Under the pieces are notes generated by a model. The model worked only from the letters and a program-made list of their open reading frames with translations, had not been told where the DNA came from and searched no databases. DNA of 64,000 bases from positions 62,310,001 to 62,374,000 of the forward strand of contig OZ287751.1 in NCBI GenBank assembly GCA_965649765.1, read 5' to 3'. The position numbers and the translations under genes are program-made. The stretch is from Bispira polyomma. Lineage: Eukaryota. Numbering within the stretch: the stretch's first letter is position 1; every line of letters starts with the position of its first letter. Below are positions 3,222 through 62,029 of the stretch, in pieces.

Positions 3222-3338
3222 AGGTTACCCAGGGACCTACACATTATTGTGATAGATTTGCCAGGCCACGGAGGTAGTAGTACTCCTGGTGATGAGGATG
3301 ACATCACGCTACCCAACATAGCACGTCACTTACGACAG
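3222..3338 (+). CDS. ABHD6: ABHD6-like copy 1 exon (DLPGHG motif)
   Basis: tttcag|RLPRDLHIIVIDLPGHGGSSTPGDEDDITLPNIARHLRQ|gtaggt; 117 nt, phase 0-0. Confidence 0.92.
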
Positions 3339-7073: not shown

Positions 7074-8017
7074 TTTGAGTATTTTCCACCTAATTCCTGC
7101 TGTTAAACACTTAAAGAACAACATATCTCTATTTTCGTAGTCCAAGGCTATTTTTTGAGTCTATAACTGATGCAAATGGGTCCTCATATTTAAGTTTTTT
7201 TTACAATTGCGTTTAAAGAAAAAATGTGATTAATATATGAACACTTTTTCTAAATCCATTCTGTTCATCTACCAGCAGATTGTTACAGTCCAAGTATTTT
7301 GAGATTTTTTGATTCAATAGACAGCATATCTTTAAAGAAGCTAATGCCTCTATAGTTCAAGGGAACTCCTGGATCATCTTCCATTGATTTGAGTATTTTC
7401 CACATAATTCCTGCTGTTAAACACTTAAAGAACAACATATCTCTATTTTCGTAGTCCAAGGCTATTTTTTGAGTCTATAACTGATGCAAATGGGTCCTCA
7501 TATTTAAGTTTTTTTTACAATTGCGTTTAAAGAAAAAATGTGATTAATATATGAACACTTTTTCTAAATCCATTCTGTTCATCTACCAGCAGATTGTTAC
7601 AGTCCAAGTATTTTGAGATTTTTTGATTCAATAGACAGCATATCTTTAAAGAAGCTAATGCCTCTATAGTTCAAGGGAACTCCTGGGTCATCTTCCATTG
7701 ATTTGAGTATTTTCCACATAATTCCTGCTTTTAAACACTTAAAGAACAACATATCTCTATTTTCGTAGTCCAAGGCTATTTTTGAATCTATAACTGATGC
7801 AAATGGGTCCTCATATTTAAGTTTTTTTTACAATTGCGTTTAAAGAATATATGTGATTAATATATGAACGCTTTTTCCAAATCCATTCTGTTCATCTACC
7901 AGCAGATTGTTACAGTCCAAGTATTTTGAGATTTTTTGATTCAATAGACAGCATATCTTTAAAGAAGCTAATGCCTCTATAGTTCAAGGGAACTCCTGGA
8001 TCATTTTCCATTGATTT
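7074..8017. repeat. Near-identical tandem triplication, 314-bp unit
   Basis: gagtattttccac starts at 7077, 7391 and 7705; units differ by only a few substitutions. Confidence 0.95.
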
Positions 8018-8580
8018 AGGTATAGGTTTTATTAGTGATTTTAACCATGTTTAGCATATTACACTGTGGTCAAAACATGTTTGAAATACCATTATCAAGG
8101 TTTCAATCACCAAGTCATATTTTAAAACCTTATAAGTAATTTATGAATTCCACATGCCTTATTATTTTTGGTATTTATTGCCACTTTCTTAATTTCATAA
8201 AAAGAAAAATTACATCATATTTATTGCTTTCACGCAAACCATTTTCATACAATGATAGCGTGTCTTGTACTTTATTAGTTAATGATAAATCATAATATTG
8301 TAAGACCTTACAGCTTTTCGATATTCTTTAATTTTATGCCTTGTATTGATGTATTCTTGTTTAAACTCTTTTTAAGTTGTCTGTGTTTACATCAAGTTTC
8401 CAGTTTCTAAATTAGGTGATAATCACACCTAATATAATATTATGCTTCTGGTGTTTGTTGACATGGCAACAATTTGGGACAACAGAATCTCAGAACTTAC
8501 AAGGATTTCAGCTTTCATATTTGGCATACATATTAGGTCTGTTTAAAAAACAAACCATTTGTACTTTGATATTAATACAA

Positions 8581-20258: not shown

Positions 20259-23200
20259 GTAAGTGGTTTAAAAATCTGTGCCTCTTGAAAAGTAATCTTA
20301 ACAGTAATCATAAACAGAATATATTAGCAGTTTTATTCATTACCCCTGGGAATGGGATGCATAAATTTGACCTTAATCAAGGTAACATGATCAAAAAATA
20401 TTTTTTTTACCATGTCGGTTCTTGGTAAATATATATTTAGATAAGGGTTAAAACAAGAATATTTGACTGTAAATTTTAAACACGCAAGACTTCATACCCA
20501 TAAAATACATAATATACAAGGACTAGCGGTACAGAAATAAGATTGAAGCACACAAATTCAAATAACAGAGTAATTTGTATACATTACACCATGGTCTAGC
20601 CGTATTACTTTAATCATGCATATACAGTGCTTTATAACATGATATATTTCAACAATACCCATCACGTTGAAGTGAATGTGAAATAGTCAAGTTAATATTT
20701 TCATTTAAGAAAAAAAAAAAATAAAACAAAACTACTAAATGCTCATATCGGCTATTTTGTAACCGTAATCAGTCAATGGAAATGAAACTCACATTTGCAA
20801 GGTAATTAACATGACAAACACAATCAAAAACATTGTACTCAGTTCTCATTTAAAAATATAGTAACTAACATCTTATCAAGTTAAATTTGTAGAACTATAG
20901 CATCCTTCTAAATGCTCATGTCAGGCATCTTGTAGCCCTAATCAGTCAATAAATCTTGTCAATTATAAACTGACAGAAAAACCTTGCTAAAAATTTCTGT
21001 GTCAGCCATCTTCTAACCATAAAGAAAATAACAAGGGAATGCTTTTTATTCAGTAAAGCTAAATTTTTTACAAGAAATCGAAATTTACAATGTGCTTAAA
21101 TTTATCAGCTGAATTGATTATGCCGATGTCTTATTTAAAAGCAACACCTGACACACTAGCAGTCAATATTTGAACTTAATATATATAGCTGTGGTCAAGG
21201 GGAGGTGGTGGGCAAATTTCCGTTGTGTTGACTGGTCTACTGCCAATTTCAATGCAAAAAATTATAATACAGGTCAATGAATCCAGTGTGTGGGATGGAT
21301 GGATAGACAGCATGAAGTGTTAGTCAATACTGCCACTGGGGATTAAGGTGTATTACAATGTTTAGGGGAACTGAAGCATCAGACCTCTTTTGGGGTCATG
21401 ATGTACACAGTTCTCCCAGAAATAAAATTGATAAAGGTCAAAGTGAATGTCAAATGAATTTTGGCGATAATTGTAAATATACTATGTTTAAAGATTTTTT
21501 TTTGTACATGTCATTTCTTGGTAAATATATATATTTTTGGGTTAAAACAAGAATAATAAAATTTTTAGGGTAAATTTTAAACATCCAAGCCAAACTTAAA
21601 GTGAGGAGGGATAGAGGATGTAAAGGTGAGTGGGACAATAGATGCAGCCTTGGATGTTTTATGCTAATATGTCCATACTGCTGATGACCTCCACAACCCA
21701 TAAGCCTTGATATTTTGTGAAGATACATTATTGATAAAAGCATAAGTAGCCTCTGATCTCCTGTATGGAATGTATATGATTTGTGAGGAATGTCTATGTG
21801 TGATAGCACTGCTGTAAGAGCAGAGTGTACATCAGTTTCAATTACTGTGTGGTAAGGTAGCACAGAGGTTACAAATAGAGATGACAGTGGTGATATGTGT
21901 CTAGAATCCAGTAGTTGCTGTATTGCCTTAACAGGGCAAAGATAATTGTTTAGTAGCTTAGGAATTTGAATAATATGCAAATCTGATCTATTCTGTAGGT
22001 TCTTTACCCATTTAGGAATAATGTGAGCTCCTGGTGGGAAAATATGAGGTCTTTTCTAAGGAAATGACAGGAAAGGTCAAATTTAATCTCTTTCGTGTGG
22101 GGCTATGTTGGATATACATAGGAATCCGAAAAATGCTAAGAGGGACATTATGCTAACATTGATCCTGAAGGATAATCTTTAGATATGATGTTAAGATGCT
22201 CGATGTCAAAAATTCTTTTGGGACTTGGCCTAAAAGTGAAAGTATGGTACAAACTTCTGATAAACATAGAAATTGTGTTATTCTCAAATACGCCTATCTT
22301 CCAATAAAGGTTTTTGGCTACAAATTTGATTGCAGCCATGTAATTTTTGATAAACTTAGGTGAAGAGCTATTCTGAACTAGAGATTCTAGAAAAGCTATC
22401 CCCGAATGTGTTACAATTTGCTGTACACTAGCATAACAATTAAAGGCAAAAACTGTCTTGAATTGATTGTTGTAGGTAGCAGTAGTACGAAGACGAAAAG
22501 CTGAGTTGACCCTCTCCCACACTGAATATTTAAATGCATGTGTGATGCTGGTGGTACCTAAAATTAAAAGGCAGTGTCCAAGTTAAAATATTGTATAGGT
22601 ACTTGGTGCCATATGAAATTTTCCTTAACTTTGTTTTAAAGAACATTTGTTGGTGGGTGATTATAGTATAACCGAAAGAGTGTCCGCAATGACATTTTCC
22701 TTACCCCTGACATGAACTATTTTTATGGTTATGTCATATGCTGCTGTTAGCAGCCATATGTTACTTCAACAAAAAGCCTGGAAGTTATCCCTGTTTTTAT
22801 TAGAACCAACTGCCACAGTTTATCACTATTTCCTTATGTGCCCACTGCGCATACCATACTCTAAGTGCTATCAGAATATTTAACTTTTCGATATAAACAA
22901 TCATCAGTTCTTCATATACATTGTATAATGGGGAGGCTTAAACCTGGTTACTGTATACTCCTCCGAAGCGTGTGAGGCATGCATCGATGAAAACTTCATC
23001 TTCCTGTGAAGTATCTTCCGGATTGATGTATGTAATAGATACCATTGTAAAGAGGTAAACATTTTATGAACCAACTGAGGTCTGCTTTGATTTCAATCGT
23101 GATCTTAAATTGCTCAGCCTGAGCTTGTCCTCAAAATTCAGATAATAATCTGTTGATAAATGCTCTGGCTGGTGTTACACTTGTATATAAAGTAGTTTTC

Positions 23201-24388
23201 CTAATATGGATTGAAATTTTCAGCGTGCAATCCATTTATAATATACGTCGATGCAACAATCATATACTTCACTAAATTTTTCTGCTGTAAATCTCATAGT
23301 CCCCTCCTCCACATCGATTTCAATGCCTAGACATGTAACCTTGGTATCCGGTGGGAACAGCTTGTCCGGATTTATGGAAAGTCCAAGGGATAACATAATT
23401 TTAAACAGTTTTTCGAATGCTTCATACACTACGGTAGCTGTGAATATCCTTATATATTCATTGATATAGCAACAACCAGTGTGATCTCTTTTACCCATCA
23501 TGTGTGCTATTACGTCAAATCACCGCTGAAATGCGGCTGAACCATGGACCTTGTCAAATGCGACTGCAGGATCAACATATTTTTTATCCCAAACATATGC
23601 CAAATTTCATGGCGTTGACAGGGTCCACTCTTAAATTCCTAAAAGCTCTAAAAAACGTCAATTTTAAAAACCCTTGCATCAGGAGTGTTTCTGAGTATTT
23701 TTTCTACTATGTCGTCCACTATTGAAAATTTCAATATGAAATCAATTCCATCGAATCGCCATCTGTTTACATTATTATTGACTAAATTACCCTTTTGGGT
23801 GAGTCAAGTTTAATACAACATGGATGATGTGGGGAACAGTGAATTACGTCACTATTGACTTCTTTACCTGTGCCTAACATGGCACTTTGTCATATTTCTT
23901 TCTCAGGATATGGTCCTACAGCGGTCTGCTACTGGAGAGCAGAATGGTGGTTGGTGGTTTTTACCACTGTGAGACTATCAGGGTTGTTTAATAAAAAGCG
24001 GAAACCAAATTTGAGATATTGTAATAATAGTTTGTCAGGATAATCTCTGAGAAATTTCTCCCACTTAATAATTCTTAAACCACAGACTAAAGGTAACTGT
24101 GCCCCTCTTAACGAAGTGATATGTATGGGGTCCACAAAATCCAAAATTTTTGTTTGAAAGAGCAAGAAATCGCTTAACATTGTCAGGTAAATAATTATCC
24201 TTAACCTTAGACATTGCCTTATTTGCAGTCACTGCATCAATTTCAGAGAAGTGATCTGAAAAGTTGACAGATGTGATACTTTATTTTCATAGCATTTTCC
24301 GGTTTGTTTAGTGAATATGGGTACTTTATGACAATATACATTGTCTCCAGAATTCATACCAATTTGGTTACTAGATATGGGTACATTA

Positions 24389-24622
24389 TTAACGTCCACT
24401 CTAGTACCTGTTTAGGTTTTATTGGGACGGGTAGTTGGAAACGCTGGCGGAAACACTGCATACAGTCGGTCAAGGTTCTGCACTAAAACCAGTGGCCCAC
24501 AGTAAAGAACTACCACCTTTCCCATATAGGCATCGACGGGATTCAAACTCACGCCGCCCAGAGGTGAGAGACCAGTGACTGTGAAGCACAATGCTTGCTA
24601 ACCACTAGGCCACTGCCGCCCC
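24389..24622 (-). mobile_element. tRNA-derived SINE, family A
   Basis: Reverse complement matches 3956-4203; the 3' tail is missing and no clear TSD. Confidence 0.92.
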
Positions 24623-24819
24623 GACAGTTATTATTAACGTTATTAACATAATATGTATTATTTCTACTATCAAACTTGGATACATTAGCATGGTTAGTCG
24701 AACACTTACTGTGCACCTTATGATTGGTACTTTTGTTAACTCGCCAGTTATAAAATTCCCTTGTTGAGTGGGATCGGTGACAGTATCCCTGTTTTCATAA
24801 CCATAAAATAAATTATTCA

Positions 24820-27800
24820 TTTTTTTTATTGTTTTATTGGACAATTAACATTACAAATAGAGTTACACAAAACAATAAGACAATGTACAATACATCAATA
24901 TGCAATTACATGTTTCATACAAATAGTCACCATTTCTATATTACTAACTTTCACTAATAGCTACATTAATTTTTTCAAAATTACAAATACAGTACCACAA
25001 AACCATTAGACAATGTACAATACAATAATATAAAATTACAAATTACATACAAAAACTGCCTATCTCTATCTTACTTCACAAATAGATACATCACTATTTT
25101 TTAATATAAAGGTACAATCAAATAATTTTGTTAAGCAGCATTATTAGCATTCATTTCAGTAACAGATTATTTAAAATTTGTTCAAGATATGTCCATAACA
25201 TTTAAATTTATCTAGATCACCCCGTAAATTATAGAGGTCGCAGAAAAGTTCAACCTTACTCTTAATAATTAGCAAATATTCAGAAAAAAAAGATTATTTT
25301 GTTTGTTTTCTTTTTTCTTTGTTTATAATCCCTTTTCCAACTAACAGTAAATAGTTAATTAATAGTAATTTATCATCTTGAGAAAATAAATGATGTTCTA
25401 AAGTATCTACAGTCTCAGTCTCACAGTACTCACAAAAAAGATTTTCCATTTGAACATATTATACCTACAATTTAGAGTTCTATTAAGGATTTTATACTGT
25501 AAAGTTTGAAGATATGGTTCTGATGTAGTAATATAAACTAACTTAAAAATAGATTTCCTATCCAGTGCTTCCATAAATGGATAAAAGTCAATCCAAGTTT
25601 CAAGAGAAGTTGGTGGCTCACATTTACTGTAAACAATATCCCAGTACAAATGGTTGTTTTTTATATTTTCTATTGGTTTTATAAAGTTATTAATACACCA
25701 TGATATTTTAAAGTTACTTTTCATTTGATCTAAAGTATTAAGAAATTTCAGTTTAGACCACCATTTAGTTGGAACTGCCTTAATGATTCCATAATACTGT
25801 AATACAAATATTTTGGCAATAGTTTTAACACAAAATTTTCATATTTTAAGATGTTTCCATTAAGGTTAATTGAGACAATTAACTTAATATAAAAAGATCG
25901 TAATTGTTATTCACCATAGTCAGTTCAATACAAGACTTATTTATGAGAATGTATTTATTATAAATAAGATATCCATTTAAAATATCATGAATAGTATATG
26001 GCTTGTTTGTCTTTATTGAAAACCATGAGTTCAAAAGTTGTTGGTAAAATTTTGTCTTTGCTAGTTGATATTTTCCAGTCGATAACTTAAAGTCAAAGAC
26101 ATCTTTACCTAACCCTATCAGTGACCAAGACAATACTTTCCATCTTTTATTAGTTGCATTAAATAAATGTTTTATCCATGAAATTTTCTGAGTGGTATGA
26201 ATACTATATATATCTGGCATCTTTAAACCACCATTTTTCCAAATTGTACTTCGCATAACTCTTGGAGGTTTCCTTCTCCACAAAAAATGAAAAATTAATC
26301 TGTTTATGTTATCAAGCACATCAGATGGTGTATAGATACTGCTAAATAAATGCAAAAATTTAGGTATAATTAGTGATTTAATTATAGTAATTTACAAGAC
26401 TACAAGACTTATTTATAAGAATGTATTTATTATAAAAAATATATCCATTTAAAATATCATGAATAGTATATGGCTTGTTTGTCTTTATTGAAAACCATGA
26501 GTTCAAAAGTTGTTGGTAAAATTTTGTCTTTGCTAGTTGATATTTTCCAGTCGATAACTTAAAGTCAAAGACATCTTTACCTAACCCTATCAGTGACCAA
26601 GACAATACTTTCCATCTTTTATTAGTTGCATTAAATAAATTTTTTATCCATGAAATTTTCTGAGTGGTATGAATACTATATATATCTGGCATCTTTAAAC
26701 CACCATTTTTCCAAATTGTACTTCGCATAACTCTTGGAGGTTTCCTTCTCCACAACAAATGAAAAATTAATCTGTTTATGTTATCAAGCACATCAAATGG
26801 TGTATAGATACTGCTAAATAAATGCAAAAATTTAGGTATAATTAGTGATTTAATTATAGTAATTTTTCTTTTCCATGAAAGGATCCTTGAATTCTAAATG
26901 TAGAGAGACTTTTCAACTGCTTTTAGTCGTTCTGTAACATTTAAATCTATACTGCAATTTGAATTAAGTGAAAACCTGACACCAAAAGTTTTGAAGTATG
27001 TTGTTTGTATCTTAATAATTTTTAAGATTTTTGGTAAATGGTTTGTTATCAAGTGCAATGTTCCCAGAGGTATAATTTCCGTTTTTCCACGTTCAACTTC
27101 AAGCCGGAGTATTCTCCAAATTCATTAAACAATTGTATTTCTTGTACTAAAGATGTTATGTCCTTAAAAAGGGTTGTGTCATCAGCTAAATGAATAATTT
27201 TGAATTATTCCTCACTAATAGTAATTCCTTTAATTGTATCTTCTGATCTGATACAATGGCTATAGTTTCTGCAACTAAAATGAACAATAAGGCAGATATC
27301 GAGCCCGGTCTTATCCTCCTATTCAATGAAAAGTATTCGGACAGATATCTATTGTTTGAGACACATGAAAAAATATTACTGTACAAAACCAAAAGCTTTT
27401 AAGGTTTAAATAAAAAGAGTCATTCTACAGTGTCAAATGCTTTTTCAAAGTCTATGATAGTTAGGATCCCTGTTTATTTTTTTAGAGATGGAAAATATAT
27501 CATATCATCTATTATTCTGATGTTTTCTCCTATAAACCTTCCCTTACCCGACTTGGTCCGGGTTTACTAAACTAGAGAGAACTTTTTTTAGCTTCATAGC
27601 TAATGCTTTAGCTAATATCTTGTAATCTGTAGCTAACAAGCTTACAGGTCTCCAAGATTTTAAATATTGAGTAAACCACGCCTTTGACTATCTGATAATT
27701 GACCATTCAAGAAAGAATACAAATAACTATCCAAGAGAGGTTTTTGTAGATCTGAACAAAAATATTTGTAAATTAGTTGTGAACCTGTCTGGCCCTAGGG

Positions 27801-29200
27801 ATTTGTCATTAGACATTGTCATTAAAGCTTTATGTAAATCTTCTATGGTTAAATCTGTTCCATATTCATTTTTACCAGTTGAATCTAATCTTGGAATGTA
27901 ATCATTTTTTAAAAATCTGTTATCATTCTCATGAATGATGCTAAGGTCAATCTAACTTTGGTATACGTTTTTGTAAAACAAATTCTGTTCTTCTGAAATT
28001 TGTTTTGGTTGTAGAATTTCTATTCAATTTGGTTGAATGATTTTTTAATGTTTTTTTGTATTGTAATTCCGCTTTTCCAAATTTAAGAAATACTTTAAAT
28101 ACTCATACTCATATTCAACCTACTTAGCTTTTGACCTTAAAATAACCCTGTTAATTTTTGTAGTTTGTATGCTTTCCCATTTATTTTTAATGCCTAGTAT
28201 TGAATAAATTTTTCTTCTGAATCATCTATATTTGTTTCTGGACTATGCAGTTGTTTTTCTAAATTTTGTTCTTTTTTTCTTTATTCTTTTGCCTTTTGGC
28301 CAGCAAACGAAATAGTTTCAGTACGGATTTGACATTTAATATACTCCCATAATAAATTTTTATTTTTAAATGCCACATTCTCTAAAACAGCTGCTATGGT
28401 GTTTTTTATTAACAATACATATGTAATGTCATATAACAAGCTCTTCAAGTTAAACTTCCAGATGCCTCTACCTCTATTTTGCGAACCTAGTAGTTCTAAT
28501 TCAAGGACAACTATACTGTAATCAGAACAATAACCAGGTTTTATCCCTATACTTTTTGTTTGATATTCAAGAGGGTTTGAAATAATCAAATAATCTAAAT
28601 GAGATTGAACAATTCCACAACAACGTCTTTCCCGCCTTGTAAACTGCAACAGAGCTTTATTTCTAAGTCTCCAAATATCAACCAATAAAAATTATTCCAT
28701 TAAGCACTTTAAATTTTTACAGTAGTCAATGATTACGTCTCTTTTGTCTCTTTTTTTATCCAAATTCTGATCTAAACACACATTAAAGTCTCCCCCCATA
28801 ATTTAATCTTTATCACCGTAACAGTTTAATTTTTTCAGATTTTCAAGAAACTGGTTTTGAGCCAACTGTTTATCTTTTGTGGGTGCATAAACATTTATAA
28901 TTATAATATTATTCCCTTCTATGTTGTCTAAGTTGATACACATAAAGTTTCTTTTATAATTTGATGGAATTAGGATGGCGACACCCCTACTATTAGAACA
29001 GCCGTGTGCTAAATATATATCACCATTCCACTCTTTTGCCTAATATTTTTTATCAGAAGTTATAGAATGTGTTTCTTGTAATAAAATAATTCCTTTAAGC
29101 TTTTGTTTCAGCCAATTAAAAACTATTTTTCTTTTCCTTTTATCTTTGAGACCTCTACGATTTAAGGAGTTTATAAATGTAGACAATAAATTTGTTGCCA
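24820..29200 (-). mobile_element. L1/Tx1-like LINE, near full-length decayed ORF2 with polyA end
   Basis: APE (LLQETHS, IINVYAPT, GGDFNVCLD, DIWRLRN, RGRGIWKFN), RT (DFEKAFD, ADDTT), GGLKMPDI; aataaa plus A-run on the minus strand at 24820-24840. Confidence 0.92.
25929..26864. repeat. Near-identical tandem duplication, period 472 bp, inside the LINE
   Basis: ORFs 25879-26355 and 26378-26827 are almost identical; extra tacaagac at the junction (26393-26400). Confidence 0.95.
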
Positions 29201-31199
29201 TTTGTTATATAAAACTGAGATTTTGTTTTGCAATATGACAAATTAATTTTTCCTTCGTGGTTTAATACTGAAACCCATCTTATTACACCTGGTGAAGCCA
29301 ACACTATTAACAGTAAGGACTGGATTGTTTTATGTCCAGACATATGTAATTATTACCGTGACAACATTTTCACAGAGAACATAAAACAAAGAACAAGCAA
29401 AAATATTTACAAAAACAACTAAACTATTTTACATTGACACTATTGTACATTATAATAATAATGTCAGAACCGACCAAGTTAAAGTAAACAGTTTTACTGT
29501 GAAATTCAGCATTTGTTAAAACTTCACATATTGTGATAAGCTGTACATTTAAGTATAACCTCAAAGTCCACAGAAGTGTGATTAACTTACATTGCTGAAC
29601 ATGGTTGTTGACTTTATCTTTGAACTCCTGTAGCTTTTCAATACATATAAAGAGCAAATAGGTATTCTTTTCGATTCTTAAAGAAACATTTTATATGACA
29701 TCTAACCAGTCAATGTGTACAGATATACCAACAAATTTGCATGTTTAAGTGCATGCCTCACTATTTGAAAGCCCATGCATATCAAAATCCAATGTTACCA
29801 GTTACATGTATTTTAAGAATAGATGTGTTAAAAATGGTTTACTTGACTTTTTATAAAATGTAATTGAAGACAGAACTATTACAAATCATTTATATGTTTA
29901 GTTTCTATATTAGAATAGTTTTTAAAAACAGTTGCATTACTGTCACATGCTTTTGCATATAACTTGGTGTTCAAATTGTTCTTTAGTATTACCATAACGT
30001 CCACAATTTATAGTATTTAGAGTGTCTGAATTCTTTACATCCCTTAGTGGGTTATCTAGAATACTATCAATATTGCAAATCTGTGATTTACTATTGTTCA
30101 TTTTAATACTATTATCATTATCAATATCATCATTGACAATTCTATTCTCAGTAACCCTGTTCATAAACTTTCCAGCTGGCAGTCGGTTAATTACCTAACT
30201 ATTGTCAGTAGCTCTGGTGTCAGCTTGCTTGGTTGAATTCGACTTCACCACTTAAACTCTAGATGCAGTGTGTCTTTGTTGAATTTTGTAGCACAGTGCT
30301 AGCATACGTGCTTTTACTAGGCATGGTTTGTTTTGTATGTACATCTACCAGTAATATATAGTTTCAAAATCATTTTAGCAGAGTTGGAAGAGTTTCAAAA
30401 ATTTGAATGAGAACTAGTTGTTGAAGCTGGGTTAGCCATAGCCATCTGTGAAACCCTAATTCGAAGCGACCATTGTGTTGAATCAGCCCAGTTAAGATGT
30501 CTTTCCTCTATCTTGGTCATAGTTAATGCCCAGCCTGTGCAAACCTTATCCCACGACATAGATGCAGCATCACGCAGTGATAGAAATACCTGCTGAATCA
30601 TGTCCTTGGACATAGTGGGGTCTGTAACTTAAAGTGCATTAGAGAGCTGCCCAGCAGCCCATTGTGGCAGGGATAGTTAATCAAATGTGGGGTGTTTGTG
30701 TGATGATCCCCAGGCCCAACCCTCATTCGCCTATCTTAACTTATGACCATTTAATGCAATGTCTGTGTGGTTAAATCAGATTTTTAGCGTGCACTGTTCT
30801 AACCTTGTGTAAAGATGGTTTGAGCTCGCGCCTTATATTCATCAAGACACTGGTTCACCAAAGCCTGGTCTTCAACGCTTTTGGCCTAGGAACTATACCG
30901 TCTGTAGCATAACTGTGACCAGTAATCCCTGTTAACCAATAAAGTAAAGGGGCAGTGTAGGATGCACCCAGTTGAGTAACTGAAACAAGATTGTGTACTA
31001 AGTCCCTGTGCAGTGTGGAGAGCTGGCGAGGCCATCAGCATGAAGCTCTGTGCCTCTAATCTGTCAAGCCGGCGAATGAGGGTCTCATTTGAGTCCTTCA
31101 ATCGTCTCAGGATTGCAAGCATTTCCGAGTCCCTGTTAGCAGGTACTTGGGCTGTAAGTAATAGTTCCGCTGAGGGAATCTGCCAGGTAAACCCTAGGT

Positions 31200-34100
31200 A
31201 GACCCAAAGGGGTTACAACCTCAACCTAAGATTTGCATATACTAAAGAGTCTTGTGACTTTATTTACAGAAATGGCACCCTGTGCTATTTATGACTGTAG
31301 GGCGTGTAAAACGACCCATAGAAAACCTATTTATGACAAATGCCCATTTGTGAATGAGCCTGAAACTAGCAAACAAAGTGACACTTCTAGTGCGTCGATA
31401 AATGCACACATATTAAAAGAACCACAAGTTCTAAGTGGTCGAATGTCGGCCATGGAAAATGAGTGGAGCAGTTGGAGAACAATCAAATTGCTAATAGTAC
31501 TACAGCTAAGCCTGTGGCATCAGCTCCATTGACCTTTCCTGTGGCTGCACCCACGTTGGCACAGCCTCTAGTTCCTGCAATGATTCCGGCGGCAAATGTT
31601 CAACCTACACCCACTTTGGCCACAGATACTGGAGACACACTGGTCCCTTCACTGACAACACTAAAGACATCTAAGTACCTCCAACAAGCAGTGGATTCCA
31701 GACTACCTGACTTGACAGGCCTGAATGAAAAAAGTAATTTTAAATCGCAAAGTGGTGGTGCTGATACAGCCTGGGTGAAACGCCAGGTTTCCTTGCCTCA
31801 AAACCACATTCTTGGGGGTACCACAAAGTCTTGTACTACGTATGACCGCCTTTCTATGGCTTAGTGGGTTTCTGGGTTCTTTTCAATAATGAGGAATAAA
31901 ACTAATGTAGATGTAAAAAATGCCATGTTAGACTATGCCCAAGATCTGACGGAAGACTGTAATGACTTTTTAGACAGCTGCTAAAGGCAGTCGGGCAGTC
32001 CTATTATGTCGGATGGAGGAGGATCTCATAGAATGAGATCGCATTAGAAGGGCCCATGCCCCAAAAGTTATGCAGCATTACAAAATTCAAATAGGATTCA
32101 AAATGGTAGTGACAAGGGAATCCCTTGTAGATATTTCCAAAAAGGTTAGTACCCTCACAAAGTTGACTACAAGACAAAAGGGCAGATGTACTTGCATATC
32201 TGTGTCACTTGCTTTAACGTTGGAAAATCGTTTCCTAATGCCTCAAAAGACTGTCATAGAAACAAAACTGGTAAATTTTCTGAGCAAAATGGTGCAAAAA
32301 ACGAGTAAGTTGATAAATTTGATAATAGAAAGTATAATTGTAATGTTGTTGTACATATCAAAGATCAAAGTCAGTATTGTAAAAGTAGAACTGTACATAA
32401 TGGAAATGTAATTAACCAGAGTGACAACTGGAGGGCTGACTGGATAGGTTTGTCAATAAATGATATGCTCAAGTAGTCAAACAAAACATGGGTACTAAAG
32501 GTCAAAAGTATACTTCTAAAGAGAATATAAAAGGTGGCCACAGAAGCCCCTGCAATTGTCGCTCAGGTAGGAATAGCAAAGTGTATAAAAACTTTTCTGC
32601 AAATAATGTACACAGTTTCAGGACATTTGATGATTGTGTAAAGGTGTCAAAACATCACACCCCAAAATGTGGTGTCAAGATCCATCCCCGTAAGGTAAAC
32701 GTGCCTAAAAATGGCTAAAGTTACACCTCAAACAAAGACAAGAATGGAGGTGGCAAGGTAATCTCTATGAAAACATGGGGCAGTGGGGCGGGTGACAAAG
32801 ACAGCATTAGCTGTCAAAATAGGTTCTCACCCTTACGGGATTTCACTGAAAATGACAATACCCCTGAAGCAAACAAACCAATTGACTCTATGTTTTGAAT
32901 TTGGCTATTTAACGTCCACTCTAGTACCTGTTTAGGTTATATTGGGACGGGTAGTTGGAAACGCTGGAGGAAACACTGCATACAGTTGATCAAGGTTCTG
33001 CACTGAAACCAGCGGCCCACAGTAAGGAACTACCACCTTTTCCACATAGGCATCGACGGGATTCGAACTCACGCTGCCCAGAGGTGAGAGACCAGTGATT
33101 GTGAAGCGCAATGCTGGCTAACCACTAGGCCACCGCGGCCCCCAAATTGACTGTAAACATTGCACCAAATTATAAATTGGAGGAAAAACACGAGTTACAA
33201 CTTCAAGTAAAGAAAAAACATAGGGAAGTTATTGCAAAAGCGGAACACAATCCCCATTTAAAAAAAATGGAACAGCGGAAAAACAAAGTTTGGTTTTATT
33301 TTTCTGGGTAACTTAAAAACACCTGATATAGTTAAGCCCTGTTCACGCTTAAGCGACCCACTTGAATTAGACAAAGTAGTGAAAAAGCAAAATTGTCCAA
33401 ATTTCCTAGGTGCCTAAATACCAGTTGTTTCTGAACTACATGTCAACGAATGGGAAAGGTTATTAAGTGACTCAAAGTAGAAAAAGAATTCGATGCAATT
33501 ATTGGACCTTTAAAACAACCTCCTTTATCCGAATTGCATATCTCCCCCTTTATGACTCGCCCAAAACCGGATGCCAAGCACCGCAGGGTACTACTCGATT
33601 AAAGTTGTCCACAAGGGCAAGCAGTCAATTCGGCTATAGACAGAGTTCAGTACCTAGATACCCCTTTCATTGTTACACTTCCCACAGTCGACTAAATTAC
33701 TCAGAATGTGGTCAGGTTAGGCAAAATAACATTATTATATAAATTAGACCTTAGTCGTGCTTTTAGGCACGCGAAAATCAATCCAGCCAACTATGATTTG
33801 TTAGGTCTACAACTCAATGATTACTATATTGACACGTGCCTCCTGTTTGGCTATCACCACGGAAGTGTCATCTTTCAAAGACTCAGTTACTCCATTTGGT
33901 TCATGATGACGTCACAAGGCCATGACCTTATCAATTATATTGAAGACATCATTGGTTACGGATTTCCCTCTAAAATCTCTGATTTATTTGAAAAACTAAA
34001 AGAACTCTTTCAAAAATTAGGCTTTGCCATTAGCCAGAAAAAGTGGTCCATCCTAGCAATACGGTAGTATATCTAGGGGTGCTTATTAATACAAAGGATT

Positions 34101-36330
34101 TTACAGTCTCCATACCAGACACTAAACTGAATGAGATAAAGCAAATTTGTTCTACATGGACTAACAAAAAAGTATGCACTAAAAGACAGCTGCAATCGTT
34201 ACTCAGTTCATTATTATATATCTCGAAATGTCAAGCTTCCCAAGCTTAACTTAACAGGATGTTAGATACATTAAGGGTTCACAAAACGCTCAGGACATTA
34301 AACTTGACATGACATTCATCAGGATCTGAACTGGTTTAATACTTTTCTTACACGTTTCAAAGGTATAGCCTTTTTTAACCAAAGACCTGTGACAGACCAA
34401 GTAAATTTAGACGTATGTTTGCAAGGATTAGGTGTTTGTTGCAATAATGAAATTTATACCAAAAAAGTTCCACTCGGTTATAGGAACTATACAATAGTCC
34501 ATCTCGAAATGATAAATATTTTAGTGGCAATTAGAGTATGGACAAATGAATGAGCTAGTCAGAAATTACTCATACATTGTGACAATCAAGCTGTGGTCTC
34601 TATTCTAAACTAAGGCAAGACCTATGATCTCACTCTGACAGCAATGAGCAGAAATATTTTTATGGAGGCTGTAAAAGCAGATATAGAGTTAAGAACTATG
34701 CACATCTTAGGTAAAAGAAATGTGACAGCAGACTTACTCTCTAGATGGGCCATTACCCCAAAAATAACACAAAGTTGAATGTCCTAATGCAAAATCCCAC
34801 TTGGTTACAGGTCGATAATGAACTGCTAGAGGTAAATTGGTCTATCTAGCTTTAACATTTTTCAGGCTCTACAACCTGGGTGTCAAAGCTTGCAGACAGA
34901 GCAGCCAGTAGCCCTCATCAGACTTTCCGCCCTTCTACACAAAATCGTACACTGCCATGTTCAGAGTATTTGTAGTTTATTGCTGTTTTGCTAATATCTC
35001 CCTGCATAACATCACACAAAGCATTTCTAGCTTTTCTAGAGTTCTTTGTAGTAAATAATACTTCTCATACCTCTGTGGCAAATTAATTGGTGTCGATTAA
35101 GGCCAATATGTCATTTTATGGTTTACATATTACTGCTTCTGCAGACCAAAGAATCAAATACTTCCAAAAAGCCCTTATTTTACATAAGCCCTTTAAGGCT
35201 AGACTAAATGGAATCAAAGACAGTGAACTCTTGCAAAAAAATAGCCCTCATATGTGACTCCATGGACATGGGTCAAATCTACAAAGCAACTTACCTACTG
35301 ACTTTTTTCTCGTTTCTGAAAATCTCCAATCTAGTCCCTCACTCACAAACCACTTATTCGCCGTTACAGCAGCTAGATAGGGCAGACATCATCTTCGCCC
35401 CCAGGTACTCACATCATTATAAAATGGATAAAAACCTTGCAGTCAAGAAATACTATTAAAGTCATTAAGATTCCTTCTCTGCAAAACATAATCATCTGTC
35501 CAGTTACAGCCCTCAGAAATTTCCTGGCAATTACACCAGGCCACAAAAATACACCATTGTTTCAAATTAAATTTAATTGTCGGTGGATGACTTTAATTGA
35601 CAGTAAAATCCGCAGTAATCTTAAAGATATTCTAAGGAGATTAAGCAAAACCCAGGCTAATATCACTTTCCATACCTTCTGTCGACCTGGGGTGACAATG
35701 GCCTTTAATGCCCATGTTCCCCTCAAAGACATTCAAAGTCAGGGTATTTGGTCCTCTGAGTGTGTGTGGAGATACATCACCCCGGACCACTCAGCCTCTG
35801 ACCAGGTAGCCCTGGCTCTCCAATCCCTTTTCAACTCTATTCCTACTTCCTAGTTGGGCCTTGGTGGTTATTCTCTCTTTTACTAAAATTTATATGCTAA
35901 AATTTTCGTATCTACTTAAGGCCACCTTATACTCAAAAACATTACACAACCTTAACTAGATAGATGTAAGTCTAAGGCCAGTATAAAATCATGTAATTCG
36001 TTAAGGTTACCTTAAATTTTGCTAAACTTAAACTCAAACTTAAAGTTACGTTAACCTTAAACTTAGTTGACGTAAAGTCACTCTTAAGGTAAAGTTAGAC
36101 TAAGTAAAATTTTTGCTAAGGTGGCCTTATTTATCTTAACTGAATTTTAACCAGTTACATATATATATGTAGTATTAGATTAAAGATATATATCCCAACT
36201 GCTCGTCTCATTCAAGGTCAAATCAATAAACTTCAAGGTTAGGACACTGTGGGTGAAACCGTGAATGGCAGTTGGCAGCCTCGAGAAAGTAGCGTCATCG
36301 AGACGTTGACTACAGGAATCTAACAGCAAT
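31200..36330 (+). mobile_element. Tyrosine-recombinase (DIRS/Ngaro-type) retrotransposon 2, decayed but with all domains
   Basis: gag (MAPCAIYDCRACKTTHRKPIYDKC, LPQNHILGG), RT (LYKLDLSRAFRH, LINYIEDIIG), RNaseH (HLEMINILVA, HCDNQAVV, ADLLSRW), YR (FLKISNLVP, CPVTAL, TFHTFCRPG, GIWSSECVWRYI). Confidence 0.93.
32894..33142 (-). mobile_element. tRNA-derived SINE, family A
   Basis: Intact A box and B box gttcgaatccc on the minus strand; degenerate TSD ccaattgactcta / caaattgactgta. Confidence 0.93.
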
Positions 36331-43779: not shown

Positions 43780-46700
43780 TATAACAGCTGAGTCTACCGT
43801 GAGATTTAAGGTGGACCTTCCAGCCTTAAGGTAACCGTACCTATGTTACTTTCTATGTCAGTATTATTGATTGTACTCTATCTACGTATACCTACATAAT
43901 TTATAAAAAATGGTGTAATAACTAAAATGCCAAACCTAAAGGTATATGTTGACTGGTTAGTGAAGTAGGCTTGAAATGATTTGGCCACTGTGTCGGCCAC
44001 TTTGGGGATTTTGATAAAGTAACACCAAATGGCATCGAACCTCGAACCCCGTGAACCTTGATGTGGTGTAATTCTACATTATTATCAAATGCCCAAGAGG
44101 CAGCTGAGCACCTAAGACAATAGAAGCCATATTCTGAGGGAGAGAGGCCCATTACTTTTATTGCTAAGTGAGGAACTTTAGACTACATGTACAGTCCCTT
44201 ACACTTACATTGATCTTCCACATTTTGTGACATTGTGTGCCCCAGTCGACCCCCATACCACGTCACCTACAGAGGGAAACCTAGTCTTGTCAAAGGCGTT
44301 TGAGGAATTGGGTACCAATGATGCTGGCCTATAAAACCTGAAAAACTCCAGCGATATTGCTGCCTGATATACTGATGCATCTGGGATAATTTGAACTGCC
44401 CTGATAACTTGTTGGGGTTGTTTAATACTCAAAACACCTTTGATCTTGTGCTTGAATGGGGCATTGTATGAAACAGCCCTATAACGACAAGTTGCATATT
44501 CCTAGTCTATAAAACACTTATGTTTAAATCGAAGATGTAAAAGTAATGCCTTAGCACTGTTAAATACCCCACAAGTGAGCCCTGTCTGTGCTAGGAACTC
44601 CAGGAATAACAGAACAGCCAGGAGTAAATCTGTTTCCGACATTTGGAAAAAGGCTAGAAAGGCTAGATAGTTTGATATGCTGTGGCTGTTCTTGGTCTTA
44701 AAGCCGACTGAATCCTATGTGAGATGTCTTGTGTGAGGCGTACTTGCAAGGGATGTCCTAAAAAGAATTATAATATTCAATATCAATATTTGGGCATAAC
44801 TGCTTGTTTTTAGTTGTAAACAATTTACATTTTTTAAGTTTGATAACTTGTGGCTATTCTGTATTGCAGAAATGGCCTCATGGAGACAGTTTTTTACCCA
44901 GGTATATTAGTTATTTGGATGTTATTGTTATTAATTGCTTGAATGAGCCACTCTGTGCGTGTGCATGCAGTAAGCCAGGTGATCTCTTGATCTACCATGT
45001 TGTATGACATCCACAAACACCAAGACTGACTGATTTATAACTGTTTCACTGTGTATCTCCACTGACCCATTAAATTGTGACAAAAACGTAGAAAACAAAT
45101 TAATGTCTTTATGTAAGTCCCTGTCCAGGGTACCTTGTGGGTTTTTTCTCAGGACATTGAGGATTCTTTTTACAAACAGTCTTGACGGCTTAACACAAAT
45201 CTAAATGTAAATGAATTTACCCAAGAGTTTTGGTAGCTCGTTGTATGACAAATACCTTTGATTCCCTGTAATTTACCATCGGTATAGTAAGGACACCTAT
45301 TTTTGAAAGTTAGGAATGCTGTGTTGGTGACGTCTGACGTCATAACGCTAACGCAGCCATTCAGATAATTGCATACCGAATATTTTTGTTATCTCATAAG
45401 GTGGGTAATACAATCTGTTACCATTTGGCAAGAAGCTCTCCCCAAAGGGAATACTAATGTTGATATCAAATATTCTATGCCATTGACATCACATAGCATA
45501 ATGACAGGAAGTCCCCTAGATCCGTACGTAGGTTTCTATATGCTCTTTCCAATCAATTTTGAATAAAACAGCAGCTTTGCCCAGGCTATTAATACAAGAA
45601 ACTGTATTGTTTATTTTTGGATATTTAAGGGAAAATGGAACGTTATCCAATGCACTGGGAGTAATATAATCGTTAACACTATTACCCCTTGGAAATAATA
45701 AGTCCGCTATAATTTGTCTGGACCTGTCTGGTTTTGATCTTGTCATTAGTGGTGAAAGGTTATAATCACGTAAGGGGGTACATTTAACGGACCCACCATG
45801 GCCTTATGTGACACCTCTACCTAAAAATACTGGCTAAAGCTGAGTGATGATTTGTGACATTTTTATTAAATTGAAAACGGTCATAGTTTATGTTAATGGG
45901 GGCAGCGGTGGCCTAGCGGTTAGCAAGCATTGCGCTTCACAATCACTGGTCTCTCACCTCTGGGCAGCGTGAGTTCGAATCCTGTCGATGGCTATGTGGG
46001 AAAGGTGGTAGTTCCTTACTGTGGGCCACTGGTGTTAGTGCAGAACCTTGACTAACTGTATGCAGTGTTTCCTCTAGCGTTTCCAACTACCCGTCCCAAT
46101 ATGACCTACTAAAAGGTACTAGAGTGGACGTTAAATATCCAAATTCAAATTTAAAGTGTATGTTAAGGGGGAAGCCAGATTATAAATAGTCATAGACTAT
46201 GGACAAACTGTAGTAGACAAATGCTTCCATGATTTAATATTTAGCCCTGAGGGGACTGTGATTCTCGCACCTTTGTAATTAGGAACTCGTGTGTGTGCTA
46301 CTAAAGTATGTGCTTGTTTTACACAGTCTAGTCGGGAGTCACAGTTAATGGCCCATTTTAAGTACAAAGGAAAAAAGCCAAACTCTTGTTTGTTATCGAC
46401 TTTCCCCCACATGACTCATAAATACTTATCGCTACATCAGAGACTCTCTCTTGATCAACCAGACTGACACTTGGTTTGGTTATTTCTGACCCATGCGCAT
46501 TCTGCTGAACAACGTTATACTTCCAATTAGAGGTGTACCCTGAATCGTTTGTAATGTTTTGGCTAAGGGTGGCCGACCACCATGTGTTATCCACCTAGCT
46601 ATTATTCTCACTTGAATTGCCTGTGGTAGAAAGAGTCAGGCCTGCATAATCACAGGAGGGTGTCTTTGTACATGTACTTGTGGCCGTGTTATTCATATCA

Positions 46701-47950
46701 CAACAATAAGGTGTTAAAGCCTGTGAACTAAAATAACTCAATAATTGGGCTGTCACTTAAAGTTAAGTCTGTCATATTTTCGCCACTAAGGAGACTAAAA
46801 CTAGTTTTGTCAACCCCACTATTCAGTGAAAACTTCTTAAACACAGTACAGCAAGTGGTGTCTGCACTAAACAAACTCACTGACTCTTGTATTATGGTCA
46901 CACTGTTGTTAAAATAACTAGCTTAGTCAGCTTAAAATCACTGGCTGTGGTGGGCTTTAACTGTGGAATTTGCACATGCAACAAAACAAGAGCACACATG
47001 TGGGTTAAGGTACAGACTACTATCGTGTATGCACCAGCTACAAGGCCACAGATGTTTGGAAAATACTGTATGCAAAGACGTATCAGCTGTCCAGGGTTGT
47101 GCCACTACACCAACGTTTTTGTCCCTCTTTGCTAGCCTTAGTAGCGAGCAGGAATTCTTATACATGAGCACGCTTGGCTGTTGGCTCGGAAAGTTCAGTC
47201 GTATCCTGCATAAGGTCCGCCTGATATTTTAACATGTTAAGAATGATTTTACTGTCCTTTTCTTCTATGAATACACCTGGAGAAACCTTGTACCCACTGG
47301 TAAATGGATAAGTCGTCAAGATTATCAGTTACTGAAAAGAATTATTGAGGCCAGTTTACTGGTGTTTTAACATGGTGGTCACCTAACCTGCAATGCCCCA
47401 ATTTTGGTAACCTGTCAGTGACTGTACCTTGAGCTGGGTTCCTGGACACTACCCGGTAGTGACAAATCCACCTTTCCACTTCTTTCTGGATACGCGTCTC
47501 CGTCCTGATGTCCTCTAATGAGGGGAGTCTACCTGGTCTTTCCCTGTCGTTTGTTTGTGGTTGTCTCCTGTGAACTGACGTTCTGATGGGTGAGTTATGC
47601 ACCGACGGGGAGACTGAGATTGAAAATTCACTGAACGACATTTTAGCACCCTACTTGTCTTATTGCTTCTGCACTCTTGCTTCTAGCGATTAGACCTTAT
47701 CCAGGAACCAATCAAACTTACCTAGAACGTGATCTGTTTTGGATTTCCTGACACGGGACTTCTGAGCCAATGTCTGAACTTCATCATCAGCTGATAACTC
47801 ACCTTGCTGGGCTTGAGATGTATCTATTGATGCTGTCACGCGACTAGCACATGTAGCAGCACACTTACTTCCCACTGGGGGGATGTGCAACAATTAAAAA
47901 CTGAGCCATAGTCACAATAAACACAGTGATAGTATAGTATGTATATATCC
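43780..47950 (-). mobile_element. Tyrosine-recombinase (DIRS/Ngaro-type) retrotransposon 3, decayed
   Basis: gag (HIPPVGSKC, LPSLEDIR, VNWPQ), RT (VPNYKGARITVPSGLN, MTRSKPD...IIADLLFPRGNSVND, LFKID), YR (FYRPASLVP, YGFYCLRCSAASWAF, IKVHG). Confidence 0.88.
45898..46150 (+). mobile_element. tRNA-derived SINE, family A
   Basis: Matches the other four copies; degenerate TSD agtttatgttaa / agtgtatgttaa. Confidence 0.93.
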
Positions 47951-48120
47951 TCACATGCAAGTAAAGTTATGGAAAAAAATAATAAGACAGTACTGTTAAA
48001 AGAATTTATATGTCTCTTGTGTATATGTATCTGACAATCTAAACAAGTAAAATATCCAGTAAAATGCAACACAAAATTTTGTATACAGTAGGAGCTTTGT
48101 AAAAGTAGTATCAATAAATA

Positions 48121-48392
48121 TTTATCTATGTCAACTTTATCCAATATTTAATGCTTTATGTATTTCATAGTGACATATAAGCCCATAAAAAGGGGCTGGG
48201 TATCTTGTGTCAATTTGTTTATGTATTGTTACATATATTGATGTGATACATGTCATTTGTCTATGTCAACTCTAGCCAATATTTAATGCTTTATGTATTT
48301 CATAGTGACATATAAGCCCATTAAAGGGGCTGGGCATCCTGTGTAAATGTTGTTTATGTATTGTTATATATATATTGATGTGATACATGTCA
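48121..48392. repeat. Tandem duplication, period about 135 bp
   Basis: tctatgtcaact...ccaatatttaatgctttatgtatttcatagtgacatataagcccat...gatgtgatacatgtca twice. Confidence 0.92.
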
Positions 48393-51787: not shown

Positions 51788-52195
51788 ACATAGACAAATG
51801 ACTGATGGCAATGTCTTACATAGACAAATGACTGACGGTAATAATTTGCACATAGACAAATGACTGATGGTGATGTATTACACATGGATTTGAATTTGGA
51901 TATTTAACATCCACTCTAGTACCTTTTAGTAGGTTATATTGGGACAGGTAGTTGGAAATGCTGGAGGAAACACTGCATACAGTCGGTCAAGGTTCTGCAC
52001 TGAAACCAGCAGCCCACAGTAAGGAACTACCACCTTTCCCACATAGGCATCGACAGGATTCAAACTCACGCCGCCCAGAGGTGAGAGACCAGTGATTGTG
52101 AAGCGCAATGCTTGCTAACCACTAGGCCACCGCGGCTCCTGTATTACACATGGACACGTGACTGATGGTAATGTCTTAAATATAGACAAATGGCA
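51788..52195. repeat. 30-32 bp minisatellite, about 5 units, split by a SINE
   Basis: catagacaaatgactgatgg.aatgt.tta(ca) repeated. Confidence 0.85.
51889..52139 (-). mobile_element. tRNA-derived SINE, family A
   Basis: Perfect 15-bp TSD tgtattacacatgga (51874-51888 and 52140-52154). Confidence 0.95.
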
Positions 52196-58995: not shown

Positions 58996-60065
58996 GTGAT
59001 GTTGTTTATCATGAAACTGGAGAGAGGACATTTTCAATAAGATAAAAATGACATAAGGACACTCAACAGAGTACACAAAGGTGCCACAGTGGCTAAAAGG
59101 AGAAAAATATTTTGAATCCATTCTTCTGCCGAGATCCAGACAACTGAACTGGTTTGAAATTTGGTGGAGGGACCCGAGCAGAATCAAATAAATTTAGGAG
59201 TAGATCTGGGATAGATCTAGGACATTTTGTAGTTTTTATTTACTGTGGGGCCTTGGAGGAGTTTGGCGATCTCCTGAGTGTCCTTCTAGTTTAAATATTT
59301 AATTTTGCAGGGCTAACATATACTCAGTGTTTAATACTGGAGGATTTAAAAATAATAATATAGGTGGCTGACATCATATCTGGAAGTAACATGTGTTGTC
59401 GACTGTGCAACGAGGTCCCTCTTTTTCATAAATGTGCCTACATTTGTGATATTTATTAATTTAAGCTTCAATAAGTTACAAATTTGCTCATCCAAGTTTT
59501 GTTAAGAAAATGCAAGCAAAACTGGAGTCACAAGCTGACTACCTAACAACACTTCTACAATTTAATGTCCAAAATCTTTTCTGCTGTTGAGCATAGCCTG
59601 TACTTTCAGTTGCCACTTTCAATTGGTATCTGGAATCATATTGTTAACATCCATTAGAAGTAAAGTGGTAAAATACAAAAATTCCAATCAAGTTGATTCG
59701 TTCAGCCAGTTGTCAGCTTGATTGTAAAGGTTTGGGAGTTTAAACTTGAATAAGGAGATTATTGCTAGAACAGAAGTGGCATTACTGTGAATGGTATTGT
59801 ACGGTTTACGACAACAGCAAGCTGTAACGGTACAACTGTTTGGATTTATAAGTAAACTTAGCTTTAGAAGGGTTGATTGCTATGAGGAAAGGTATTCCTA
59901 TATAGAAACCCGCTGTAAAACTTGTTGTAGTGTTCCAAGGTAAAATATGTTTAATTTAGAACGTTCAAATGTACATCAATATCAAAGTCCAAGAACCCAA
60001 ACCATAAATGTTGTTGATATTAATAAACAATATTGATACTATAATTTTGCCTATATGTACACTAG

Positions 60066-60204
60066 TGAGCTGCGTATAAAAGAAGTACAGGTAGGATCGT
60101 ACCAGATCATGTATGCTGAGTGCGGTCTTCCTGGTGACAAGTCCTCTCTTCTCTTTGTCCATGGGATTACGACTAGTAAACGTACATGGATGAAAGTGGT
60201 GAAG
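60066..60204 (+). CDS. ABHD6: ABHD6-like copy 2 exon (HG oxyanion motif)
   Basis: ELRIKEVQVGSYQIMYAECGLPGDKSSLLFVHGITTSKRTWMKVVK|gtgagt; 139 nt from acceptor ctag|, same length as in copy 1; alternative ATG at 60055. Confidence 0.85.
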
Positions 60205-61705: not shown

Positions 61706-61822
61706 AGGTTACCAAGGGACCTACACATTATTATGTTAGATCTGCCAGGCCACGGAGGTAGTAGTACTCCTGGTGATGAAGATGACATCACGCTACCCAA
61801 CATAGCACGTCATTTACGACAG
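61706..61822 (+). CDS. ABHD6: ABHD6-like copy 2 exon (DLPGHG motif); gene continues beyond the window
   Basis: tttcag|RLPRDLHIIMLDLPGHGGSSTPGDEDDITLPNIARHLRQ|gtaggt; 6 nt differences from copy 1 in 117 nt. Confidence 0.92.
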
Positions 61823-62029
61823 GTAGGTGGTATATATTTATATATTTTATTTATTATGGTGACAAGTGTTTTGGTTGACATTCATACATATAGATATATT
61901 TTTGTTAACACCCACCCTACTGGTGCATGTAATAGACAACAAACATGTATTTTACTAAGTTACAAATACAAATTAATTTACACTTTATTTAAAACAAGAC
62001 TAACACACAAATATGTCTGAATACATATG

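Follow-up and report, generated by a model that had tools for sequence, protein, structure and literature searches.

The window analysed here is a stretch of 64,000 nucleotides (nt) of Bispira polyomma DNA (NCBI GenBank assembly GCA_965649765.1, contig OZ287751.1, positions 62,310,001 to 62,374,000 of the forward strand); positions below count from its first letter. It carries three decayed retrotransposons, E1, E2 and E3, in each of which gag, a reverse transcriptase (RT)-RNase H (RH) frame, called pol below, and a tyrosine recombinase (YR) follow one another on one strand. The recombinase frame begins without a start codon, and a putative 3' splice site lies directly ahead of it.

Three decayed elements and their family

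The window DNA is AT-rich (mostly 27-40% GC; the genome is at about 32%), full of repeats and without long open reading frames (ORFs). The elements and their domains are listed below; E values refer to matches with protein relatives, which carry P numbers.

About 31200-21600, minus strand: E1, interrupted by a long interspersed nuclear element (LINE)
30190-31212, minus strand: E1 gag remnant, 5' end missing, boundaries approximate (P0168, E 2e-6)
22564-24105, minus strand: E1 RT-RNase H, stop TAA at 22566-22564
21595-22557, minus strand: E1 tyrosine recombinase exon
31272-35853, plus strand: E2
31272-32308, plus strand: E2 gag, with an N-terminal CxxC..H..C zinc finger, a coiled coil, a Pro/Ala linker and a conserved C-terminal half
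33330-34849, plus strand: E2 RT-RNase H, ending at TAG 34847-34849, start approximate (RVT_1 and RT_RNaseH, below curated cut-offs)
34866-35853, plus strand: E2 tyrosine recombinase exon, frameshifted, without its own start codon at the 5' end (P0003, E 1e-80)
47909 to about 43940, minus strand: E3
46900-47909, minus strand: E3 gag, ATG at 47909, 3' end approximate
44758-46280, minus strand: E3 RT-RNase H, interrupted by a repeat resembling a short interspersed nuclear element (SINE), start approximate
43940-44757, minus strand: E3 tyrosine recombinase exon, 3' end approximate

All three copies are dead and carry many stops and frameshifts. They are also deeply divergent: blastn aligns E1 with E2 in just two short stretches and gives no match with E3. 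The gag of E2, itself interrupted by frameshifts and stops, is 41% identical to the intact gag protein P0168 (tblastn, E 6e-49; zinc-finger piece E 5e-9).

Domain order and a missing methyltransferase (MT) domain indicate that the elements are probably Ngaro-type and not DIRS1-type. No MT domain lies between RH and YR, the distance from pol stop to acceptor being 0-16 nt in all three. DIRS1-like and PAT-like elements are likewise YR retrotransposons with gag and RT/RH, but in the passages of PMC4157794 and PMC3266345 theirs carry an MT after RH, for which there is no room here, and both identities were rejected on this ground. The likeness to Ngaro-like elements (order DIRS) comprises the gene order on one strand, the lack of MT and a 3' direct repeat in E1; a difference is that no hydrolase ORF was identified here and that full split direct repeats were not recovered.

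A phase-1 acceptor ahead of the recombinase

The original prediction held that a pyrimidine tract and AG at the end of the RT/RNase H frame lead into the YR frame in phase 1, and that a GT inside gag is their partner. The tract and AG are present in all three elements, all six GT/AG positions are where they had been placed, and all are in phase 1 to the gag and YR frames. The acceptors are ranked here among all AGs of the same element, with approximate splice matrices.

34850-34866, plus strand: E2 acceptor and pyrimidine tract, AG at 34864-34865, phase 1, 9.2 bits, rank 1 of 292
22557-22572, minus strand: E1 acceptor, AG at 22559-22558, junction 22558/22557, phase 1, 7.9 bits, rank 4 of 286
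44757-44772, minus strand: E3 acceptor, AG at 44759-44758, junction 44758/44757, phase 1, 8.2 bits, rank 7 of 283

In a fixed-phase window of 12 codons in the elements' own DNA, an acceptor of at least 7.9 bits arises with a chance of 0.016 per element, the windows for this and for the donor estimate below having been picked after the fact. Branch-point-like YTRAY motifs occur at -11 (E2), -26 (E1) and -26 (E3), and are too frequent to be counted.

The arrangement around the acceptor differs in detail between the elements. In E2, the pol stop (TAG 34847-34849) is followed by an in-frame TAA (34853-34855) and then by the acceptor, after which the recombinase reads on S-T-T-W-V-S-K-L; in E3, the stop of the pol frame is the acceptor's own TAG. 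From the pol stop to the end of the acceptor AG there are 16 nt in E2, 6 nt in E1 and 0 nt in E3. Relative to pol, the YR frame is 0 in E2 and -1 in both E1 and E3, and it is open upstream of the acceptor for three, eight and three codons in E2, E1 and E3, respectively.

The claim that the recombinase has no ATG at its start also holds, since in no element does the YR frame contain one in the stretch from its last upstream stop to the acceptor. The next in-frame ATG comes after about 30 codons in E2 (at 34957, past a local frameshift) and after about 73 and 87 codons in E1 and E3, respectively. An internal Met was rejected as the general start of the recombinase, being missing in E1 and E3 and sitting inside helix 2.

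The acceptor also falls at a domain edge, as judged from a predicted structure. The AlphaFold model of the relative P0003 (64 sequences, pLDDT 94) has its first helix at residues 2-13 and superposes over its full length on Cre recombinase (TM 0.75, E 4e-10), and the acceptor is about 1-8 residues ahead of that helix. In this model, a start at the internal Met (residue 28) would remove the first helix and half of the second. A core-binding and a catalytic domain with the R..H-x-x-R..Y set are present, judged on relatives: R148, H266, R269 and Y300 are conserved at 90% or more among them, while the window copies are mutated. The relative's exon is thus predicted to fold as the complete N- plus C-domain of Cre (PDB 1pvr, 1ma7 and others); it differs in having 16% identity and in that the N-terminal extension predicted here would derive from Gag.

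The acceptor footprint in protein relatives

Conservation of the acceptor was assessed on protein relatives of the YR rather than on DNA, by applying the matrices to peptides. ORF callers often begin upstream of an exon that lacks an ATG, so that the 3' end of an intron is translated along with it. A phase-1 acceptor would then appear as a run of pyrimidine-coded residues, followed by a residue with an NYA codon and a residue with a GNN codon. Among 167 YR relatives, 93 reach the N-terminal region, and in 31 the called sequence extends six residues or more beyond profile column 1 on its upstream side; P0014, whose YR is joined straight to RH, and the gene model P0017 were set aside, leaving 29 to be scored. 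These are divergent, with a median identity of 31% and a maximum of 52%. The nearest ESM Atlas cluster for a related YR region is mostly from Mollusca.

The footprint is pronounced. The mean phase-1 acceptor score is 4.6 bits, with at least 5 bits in 16 of the 29 relatives and at least 3 bits in 24. By comparison, the body of the YR gives a mean of 0.30 bits (z 5.9, 0/2000), shuffles of the same peptides 1.75 bits (z 4.5, 0/2000) and stop-free frames of the window -0.70 bits (0/300). The junction residue is G in 13 relatives, D in six, V in three and E in two, and typical peptides end at the junction, marked by a slash, as FFVFS/G, LFFIFT/G, LIFLFT/D and SYLFA/G. Acceptors in phases 0 and 2 were tried and gave no significant signal (z -2.2 and -0.5 for phase 0, 1.1 and 1.8 for phase 2, against the two controls), the phase-0 control being one-sided because a phase-0 TAG acceptor is impossible in an open upstream extension. 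Called ORF starts are spread from 83 residues upstream to 26 downstream, and none of the 29 extended relatives has Met at profile column 1, where 12 have Leu.

A phase-1 3' splice site ahead of the recombinase is thus well supported as a prediction from sequence, in three elements and 29 divergent relatives. If the phase of the acceptor is constant, the exon upstream of it would be a coding one.

The candidate donor in gag

The donor proposed in each element lies in gag, and is ranked among the GTs within gag of that element:

31731-31739, plus strand: proposed E2 gag donor AAA/GTAATT, intron start 31734, phase 1, 4.1 bits, rank 5 of 59
30797-30806, minus strand: proposed E1 gag donor AAG/GTTAGA at 30803, phase 1, 6.2 bits, rank 1 of 40
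47427, minus strand: proposed E3 gag donor AAG/GTACAG, phase 1, 5.2 bits, rank 11 of 77

The chance of a donor of at least 4.1 bits in an eight-codon window is 0.058 per element. The three sites lie 29-32 codons past the start of the P-x-L helix and three to eight codons ahead of a K-S/K-L motif, in a linker that separates the zinc finger and coiled coil at the N-terminus from the conserved C-terminal half. Their positions and phase agree with the claim that they occupy a homologous spot, and the homology itself is only approximate, the linker being rich in indels. The zinc finger of the Gag half that the splice was said to retain can be seen in E2 and is degenerate in E3; E1, whose 5' end abuts E2, shows none.

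Further support comes from the intact relative P0168, a member of a 19-member cluster, which aligns with E2 without gaps and reads Q-G-K at the donor site. E2 keeps the GT there although its residue is Ser, not Gly. Pfam has no match for either gag, and an ESM Atlas search with P0168 returned unnamed clusters only. Another relative, P0017 (NCBI model LOC130567514 from Triplophysa rosa, 611 amino acids (aa)), has a Pro/Ala-rich N-terminal half without an RT match, followed by YR.

Proposed mechanism

The sites suggest the following scheme. Unspliced RNA would be both the genome and the message translated into Gag and Pol. In part of the full-length RNA, the cap-proximal phase-1 donor in the gag linker would be joined to the 3' splice site where RNase H ends, a few codons ahead of the first Cre-like YR helix, and the splice would take out the C-terminal half of Gag and all of pol. 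The product would be a protein of about 460-480 aa (in E2, by coordinates, 154 + 328 codons), comprising the Gag zinc finger, coiled coil and helix and the whole recombinase.

We infer splicing itself, the gag GT as its partner and a role for the Gag half, which may lie in packaging, RNA or cDNA binding, or oligomerisation. The Gag part could carry the recombinase into the particle or onto the cDNA, a proposal that follows from the description of Ngaro elements, in the passages of PMC3783388, as lacking a protease, which would be needed to free an integrase from a polyprotein.

These propositions differ in strength. It is rather likely, from the sequence evidence, that the recombinase is reached by splicing from some donor. 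That the product is a fusion of the N-terminal part of Gag with YR through the gag donor has a probability of about 0.5. Only tentatively can it be proposed that across animals, as represented by this invertebrate-type family and fish, the only integrating enzyme of Ngaro elements is an obligate spliced fusion of the Gag N-terminal half with a Cre-like recombinase. The original prediction of a spliced Gag-YR mRNA thus stands as regards the phase-1 3' splice site, whereas its gag donor is plausible and not unique; as for conservation of the GT/AG pair and its phase, the AG side is borne out by the footprint, whereas the gag GT has the three window sites and the aligned Q-G-K of P0168 for it and a rival GT in RNase H against it.

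Several observations weigh against a Gag-YR fusion, some concerning the acceptor and others the donor. Among the 93 relatives, 17 have their called start at a Met that coincides with column 1, including five close kin that defined the column, although a caller's Met may be ATG, GTG or TTG and E2 has GTG there; nine more are called from an internal Met. Within the scored set, another Met lies within 12 residues in seven of the 29, and five score below 3 bits. The ranks of the gag donors (5/59, 1/40 and 11/77) are modest, and their support among relatives is a single sequence, as P0169 does not cover the site. The N-terminal half of P0017, which we took to resemble fish Ngaro Gag, was not confirmed as such by comparison: it has no match to P0168 (best E 1.7), and an ESM Atlas search with P0017 residues 170-380 gave unnamed clusters only.

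A natural single ORF of this family joining the N-terminal part of Gag to YR was also sought in protein libraries and none was found, a weak negative since these libraries consist mostly of genomic ORF calls and cover the 330-570 aa band poorly. One YR search gave 13 matches, all of 281-326 aa; three of the four library matches of at least 572 aa carry RT; the best 150 of 9327 YR matches are at most 420 aa long; and neither of the two matches in a gag search has YR. In addition, when all donors were scanned and placed on reference proteins, a second homologous GT emerged, in a G-K motif of RNase H, scoring 5.3, 9.7 and 3.7 bits in E2, E1 and E3 as against 4.1, 6.2 and 5.2 bits for the gag GTs. 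That this GT is shared implies that G-K peptide motifs create such donors cheaply, for protein reasons. Lastly, the relatives P0014 and P0015 carry RT, RH and YR in one open frame, and may be mutants or a real alternative.

Alternative explanations

The second GT is the basis of a rival that uses the same acceptor:

34708-34716, plus strand: E2 RNase H rival donor TAG/GTAAAA (34711), phase 1, 5.3 bits, 155-nt intron
22704, minus strand: E1 RNase H rival donor GGG/GTAAGG, phase 1, 9.7 bits, 147-nt intron
44897, minus strand: E3 RNase H rival GT, at a frameshift, 3.7 bits, 140-nt intron

Removal of an intron of 140-155 nt would yield an RT-RH(truncated)-YR polyprotein without the pol stop and the last RNase H helix. 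The site is the nearest strong donor to the acceptor, gives an intron of ordinary size and is in phase 1 at the homologous G-K in E2 and E1, with a GT at the same place beside the frameshift in E3. This G-K belongs, however, to a conserved RNase H motif that immediately precedes the last catalytic Asp. It is ranked below the gag donor because protein constraint explains the GT and because the splice would remove the last helix and so destroy RNase H. A first exon of more than 3 kb would be needed as well, the fused relatives P0014 and P0015 keep the whole segment and so include no retrotransposed splice product, and P0017 has its N-terminal half without an RT match. This polyprotein is therefore considered unlikely.

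Alternatively, the acceptor could be joined to a short 5' leader exon, either with its own ATG or non-coding, with translation beginning at a downstream Met, so that YR would be made without a Gag part; another variant is that YR has its own ATG in many lineages. E2 does have a 7.8-bit acceptor two bases ahead of the gag ATG (31270; site 31255-31274, plus strand), in phase 1 to gag, and the relatives called from column 1 (17/93) or from an internal Met (9/93) would fit. No such acceptor is seen by eye before the gag ATG of E3, though, and E1 has lost its 5' end. With a non-coding leader the phase would not be fixed, and the internal Met fails here as it does as a general start, from its absence in E1 and E3 and its place inside helix 2. 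Recombinase without Gag is accordingly a rather unlikely product.

A third possibility is that RH and YR overlap briefly and that ribosomes pass into YR there by a programmed -1 frameshift, with the AG and T-run incidental. Poulter and Butler (2015), as quoted in a passage of PMC13003380, describe the YR of Ngaro elements as slightly overlapping RT/RH in the -1 frame and probably reached by programmed frameshifting. E1 and E3 resemble this description, having YR in the -1 frame with overlaps of eight and three open codons. T-runs can be slippery, P0014 and P0015 show that a Pol-YR frame exists, and stops in dead copies may be decay. E2, by contrast, has YR in frame 0 behind two stops and without an overlap, and a phase-1 acceptor precedes YR in all three; the argument from E2 is weakened by the decay of the window copies. 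No XXXYYYZ heptamer occurs in any open pol/YR overlap of the decayed copies E1-E3, and the heptamer-type dipeptide [FKGP][FK] is found in nine of the 29 relatives as against 7.7 in shuffles (606/2000), while the AG footprint exceeds shuffles of the same composition. Furthermore, the frame relation of YR to pol is free in fungal Ngaro, all groups of which have YR either in frame or shifted according to the passages of PMC3783388, and a free frame relation combined with a fixed acceptor phase fits splicing. Frameshifting is thus regarded as quite unlikely.

The absence of any splicing, with look-alike sites in an AT-rich pol-YR spacer and YR produced through reinitiation or readthrough, or from an internal promoter and a non-AUG start, is very unlikely: the genome has about 32% GC, the windows were picked after the fact, the matrices are approximate and 5/29 relatives lack the footprint, but this footprint is specific to phase 1, exceeds shuffles of the same peptides and is present in 24/29 divergent relatives.

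Relation to known systems

Retroviral env, foamy virus pol and Ty1/Copia Gag are expressed from spliced subgenomic RNAs, and they share with the Gag-YR fusion proposed here the principle that alternative splicing of one genomic RNA sets protein amounts. To our knowledge, none of these systems makes its integrating enzyme as a half-Gag fusion.

The nearest mechanistic analogue is the SD' RNA of murine leukaemia virus (MLV), in which, according to the passages of PMC10496198, splicing runs from a donor within gag to an acceptor in pol, and the product P50 fuses the N-terminal part of Gag in frame to a segment of the integrase. P50 is an accessory protein whose integrase part is limited to the C-terminal 116 aa of a DDE enzyme (PMC10496198), whereas here the whole tyrosine recombinase, the element's only integrase, would be the spliced product.

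No earlier description of a spliced Gag-YR was found in the literature searched, whose scope excluded the founding Ngaro paper and the main review. It is absent from the passages of PMC7192593, PMC4157794, PMC9341512, PMC6681497 and PMC9210276, and from those of PMC2632668 (with its supplement text), PMC3266345, PMC3212892 and PMC13465315. Novelty is therefore provisional.

Element ends and other features

Searches for split direct repeats gave one pair, a candidate for B1/B2:

21490-21589 and 20394-20488: E1 3' direct repeat pair, about 100 nt, 75% identical

No direct pair corresponding to it was found at E2 or E3, and the 5' ends of E1 and E2 are apparently lost. A search for inverted terminal repeats gave only short, weak inverted matches, the element ends being decayed. 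After the YR end, the three elements share a similar short stretch rich in T and G (35851-35870, plus; 21597-21580, minus; about 43935-43920, minus), which is possibly the start of a terminal repeat. E1 and E2 stand head to head (31200-31270), less than about 60 nt apart, with the E1 zinc finger and both 5' repeats seemingly lost, which suggests a nested insertion or a deletion. Just upstream of the E3 gag, at 48120-48392, lies a tandem pair of 139 nt (91%); the supplement of PMC2632668 also has an amphioxus Ngaro-like element drawn with duplicated upstream repeats.

The SINE-like repeat of 250 nt has five copies in the window, 92-94% identical (24389-24641, 32894-33143, 45897-46150, 3954-4204 and 51888-52141). 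Its tRNA-like A and B boxes were recognised by eye, and Rfam and ARAGORN were negative. Each element has one copy in its gag-RT spacer, where the LINE of E1 also lies. The probability of at least three of five copies falling in this 5% of the window is about 0.001, calculated post hoc, and the spacer may be an accessible region or hold an internal promoter. The LINE within E1, at about 24800-29700 (minus strand), is decayed, with an endonuclease (PF03372) at 28700-29300 and an internal tandem duplication of 472 nt (25929-26700, 99%).

Two codons before its stop, the gag of E2 has an in-frame A AAA AAC heptamer (32296-32308, plus strand), a candidate gag-pol -1 frameshift site. P0168 and P0169 read S-K-N at this position, the -1 frame is closed in the E2 copy, and E1 and E3 have no such heptamer. 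The relative P0154 passes from the RT-to-RH tether straight into the YR N-terminus, skipping RNase H, through a deletion or as another splice form. Elsewhere in the window, a repeat of 3-3.5 kb has two copies (1136-4681 and 59686-62790, 83-93%) with a weak alpha/beta-hydrolase match (PF00561, below cut-off), and a tandem array of three units of about 314 nt (7074-8129) has a further dispersed copy at 62849-63120.

Implications

On the translation of the ATG-less YR frame in Ngaro elements, the sole statement found is the frameshift guess, quoted second-hand in a passage of a later source. If the Gag-YR fusion is real, a conserved splice would replace that guess. What is annotated as 'ORF3' would be an exon, and the real recombinase would be about 130-150 aa longer than assumed, redefining its N-terminus for annotation and for assays. 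The fusion would also account for the delivery of the integrase to the cDNA in an element that has no protease, and it would predict exon-trapping of host genes by such insertions.

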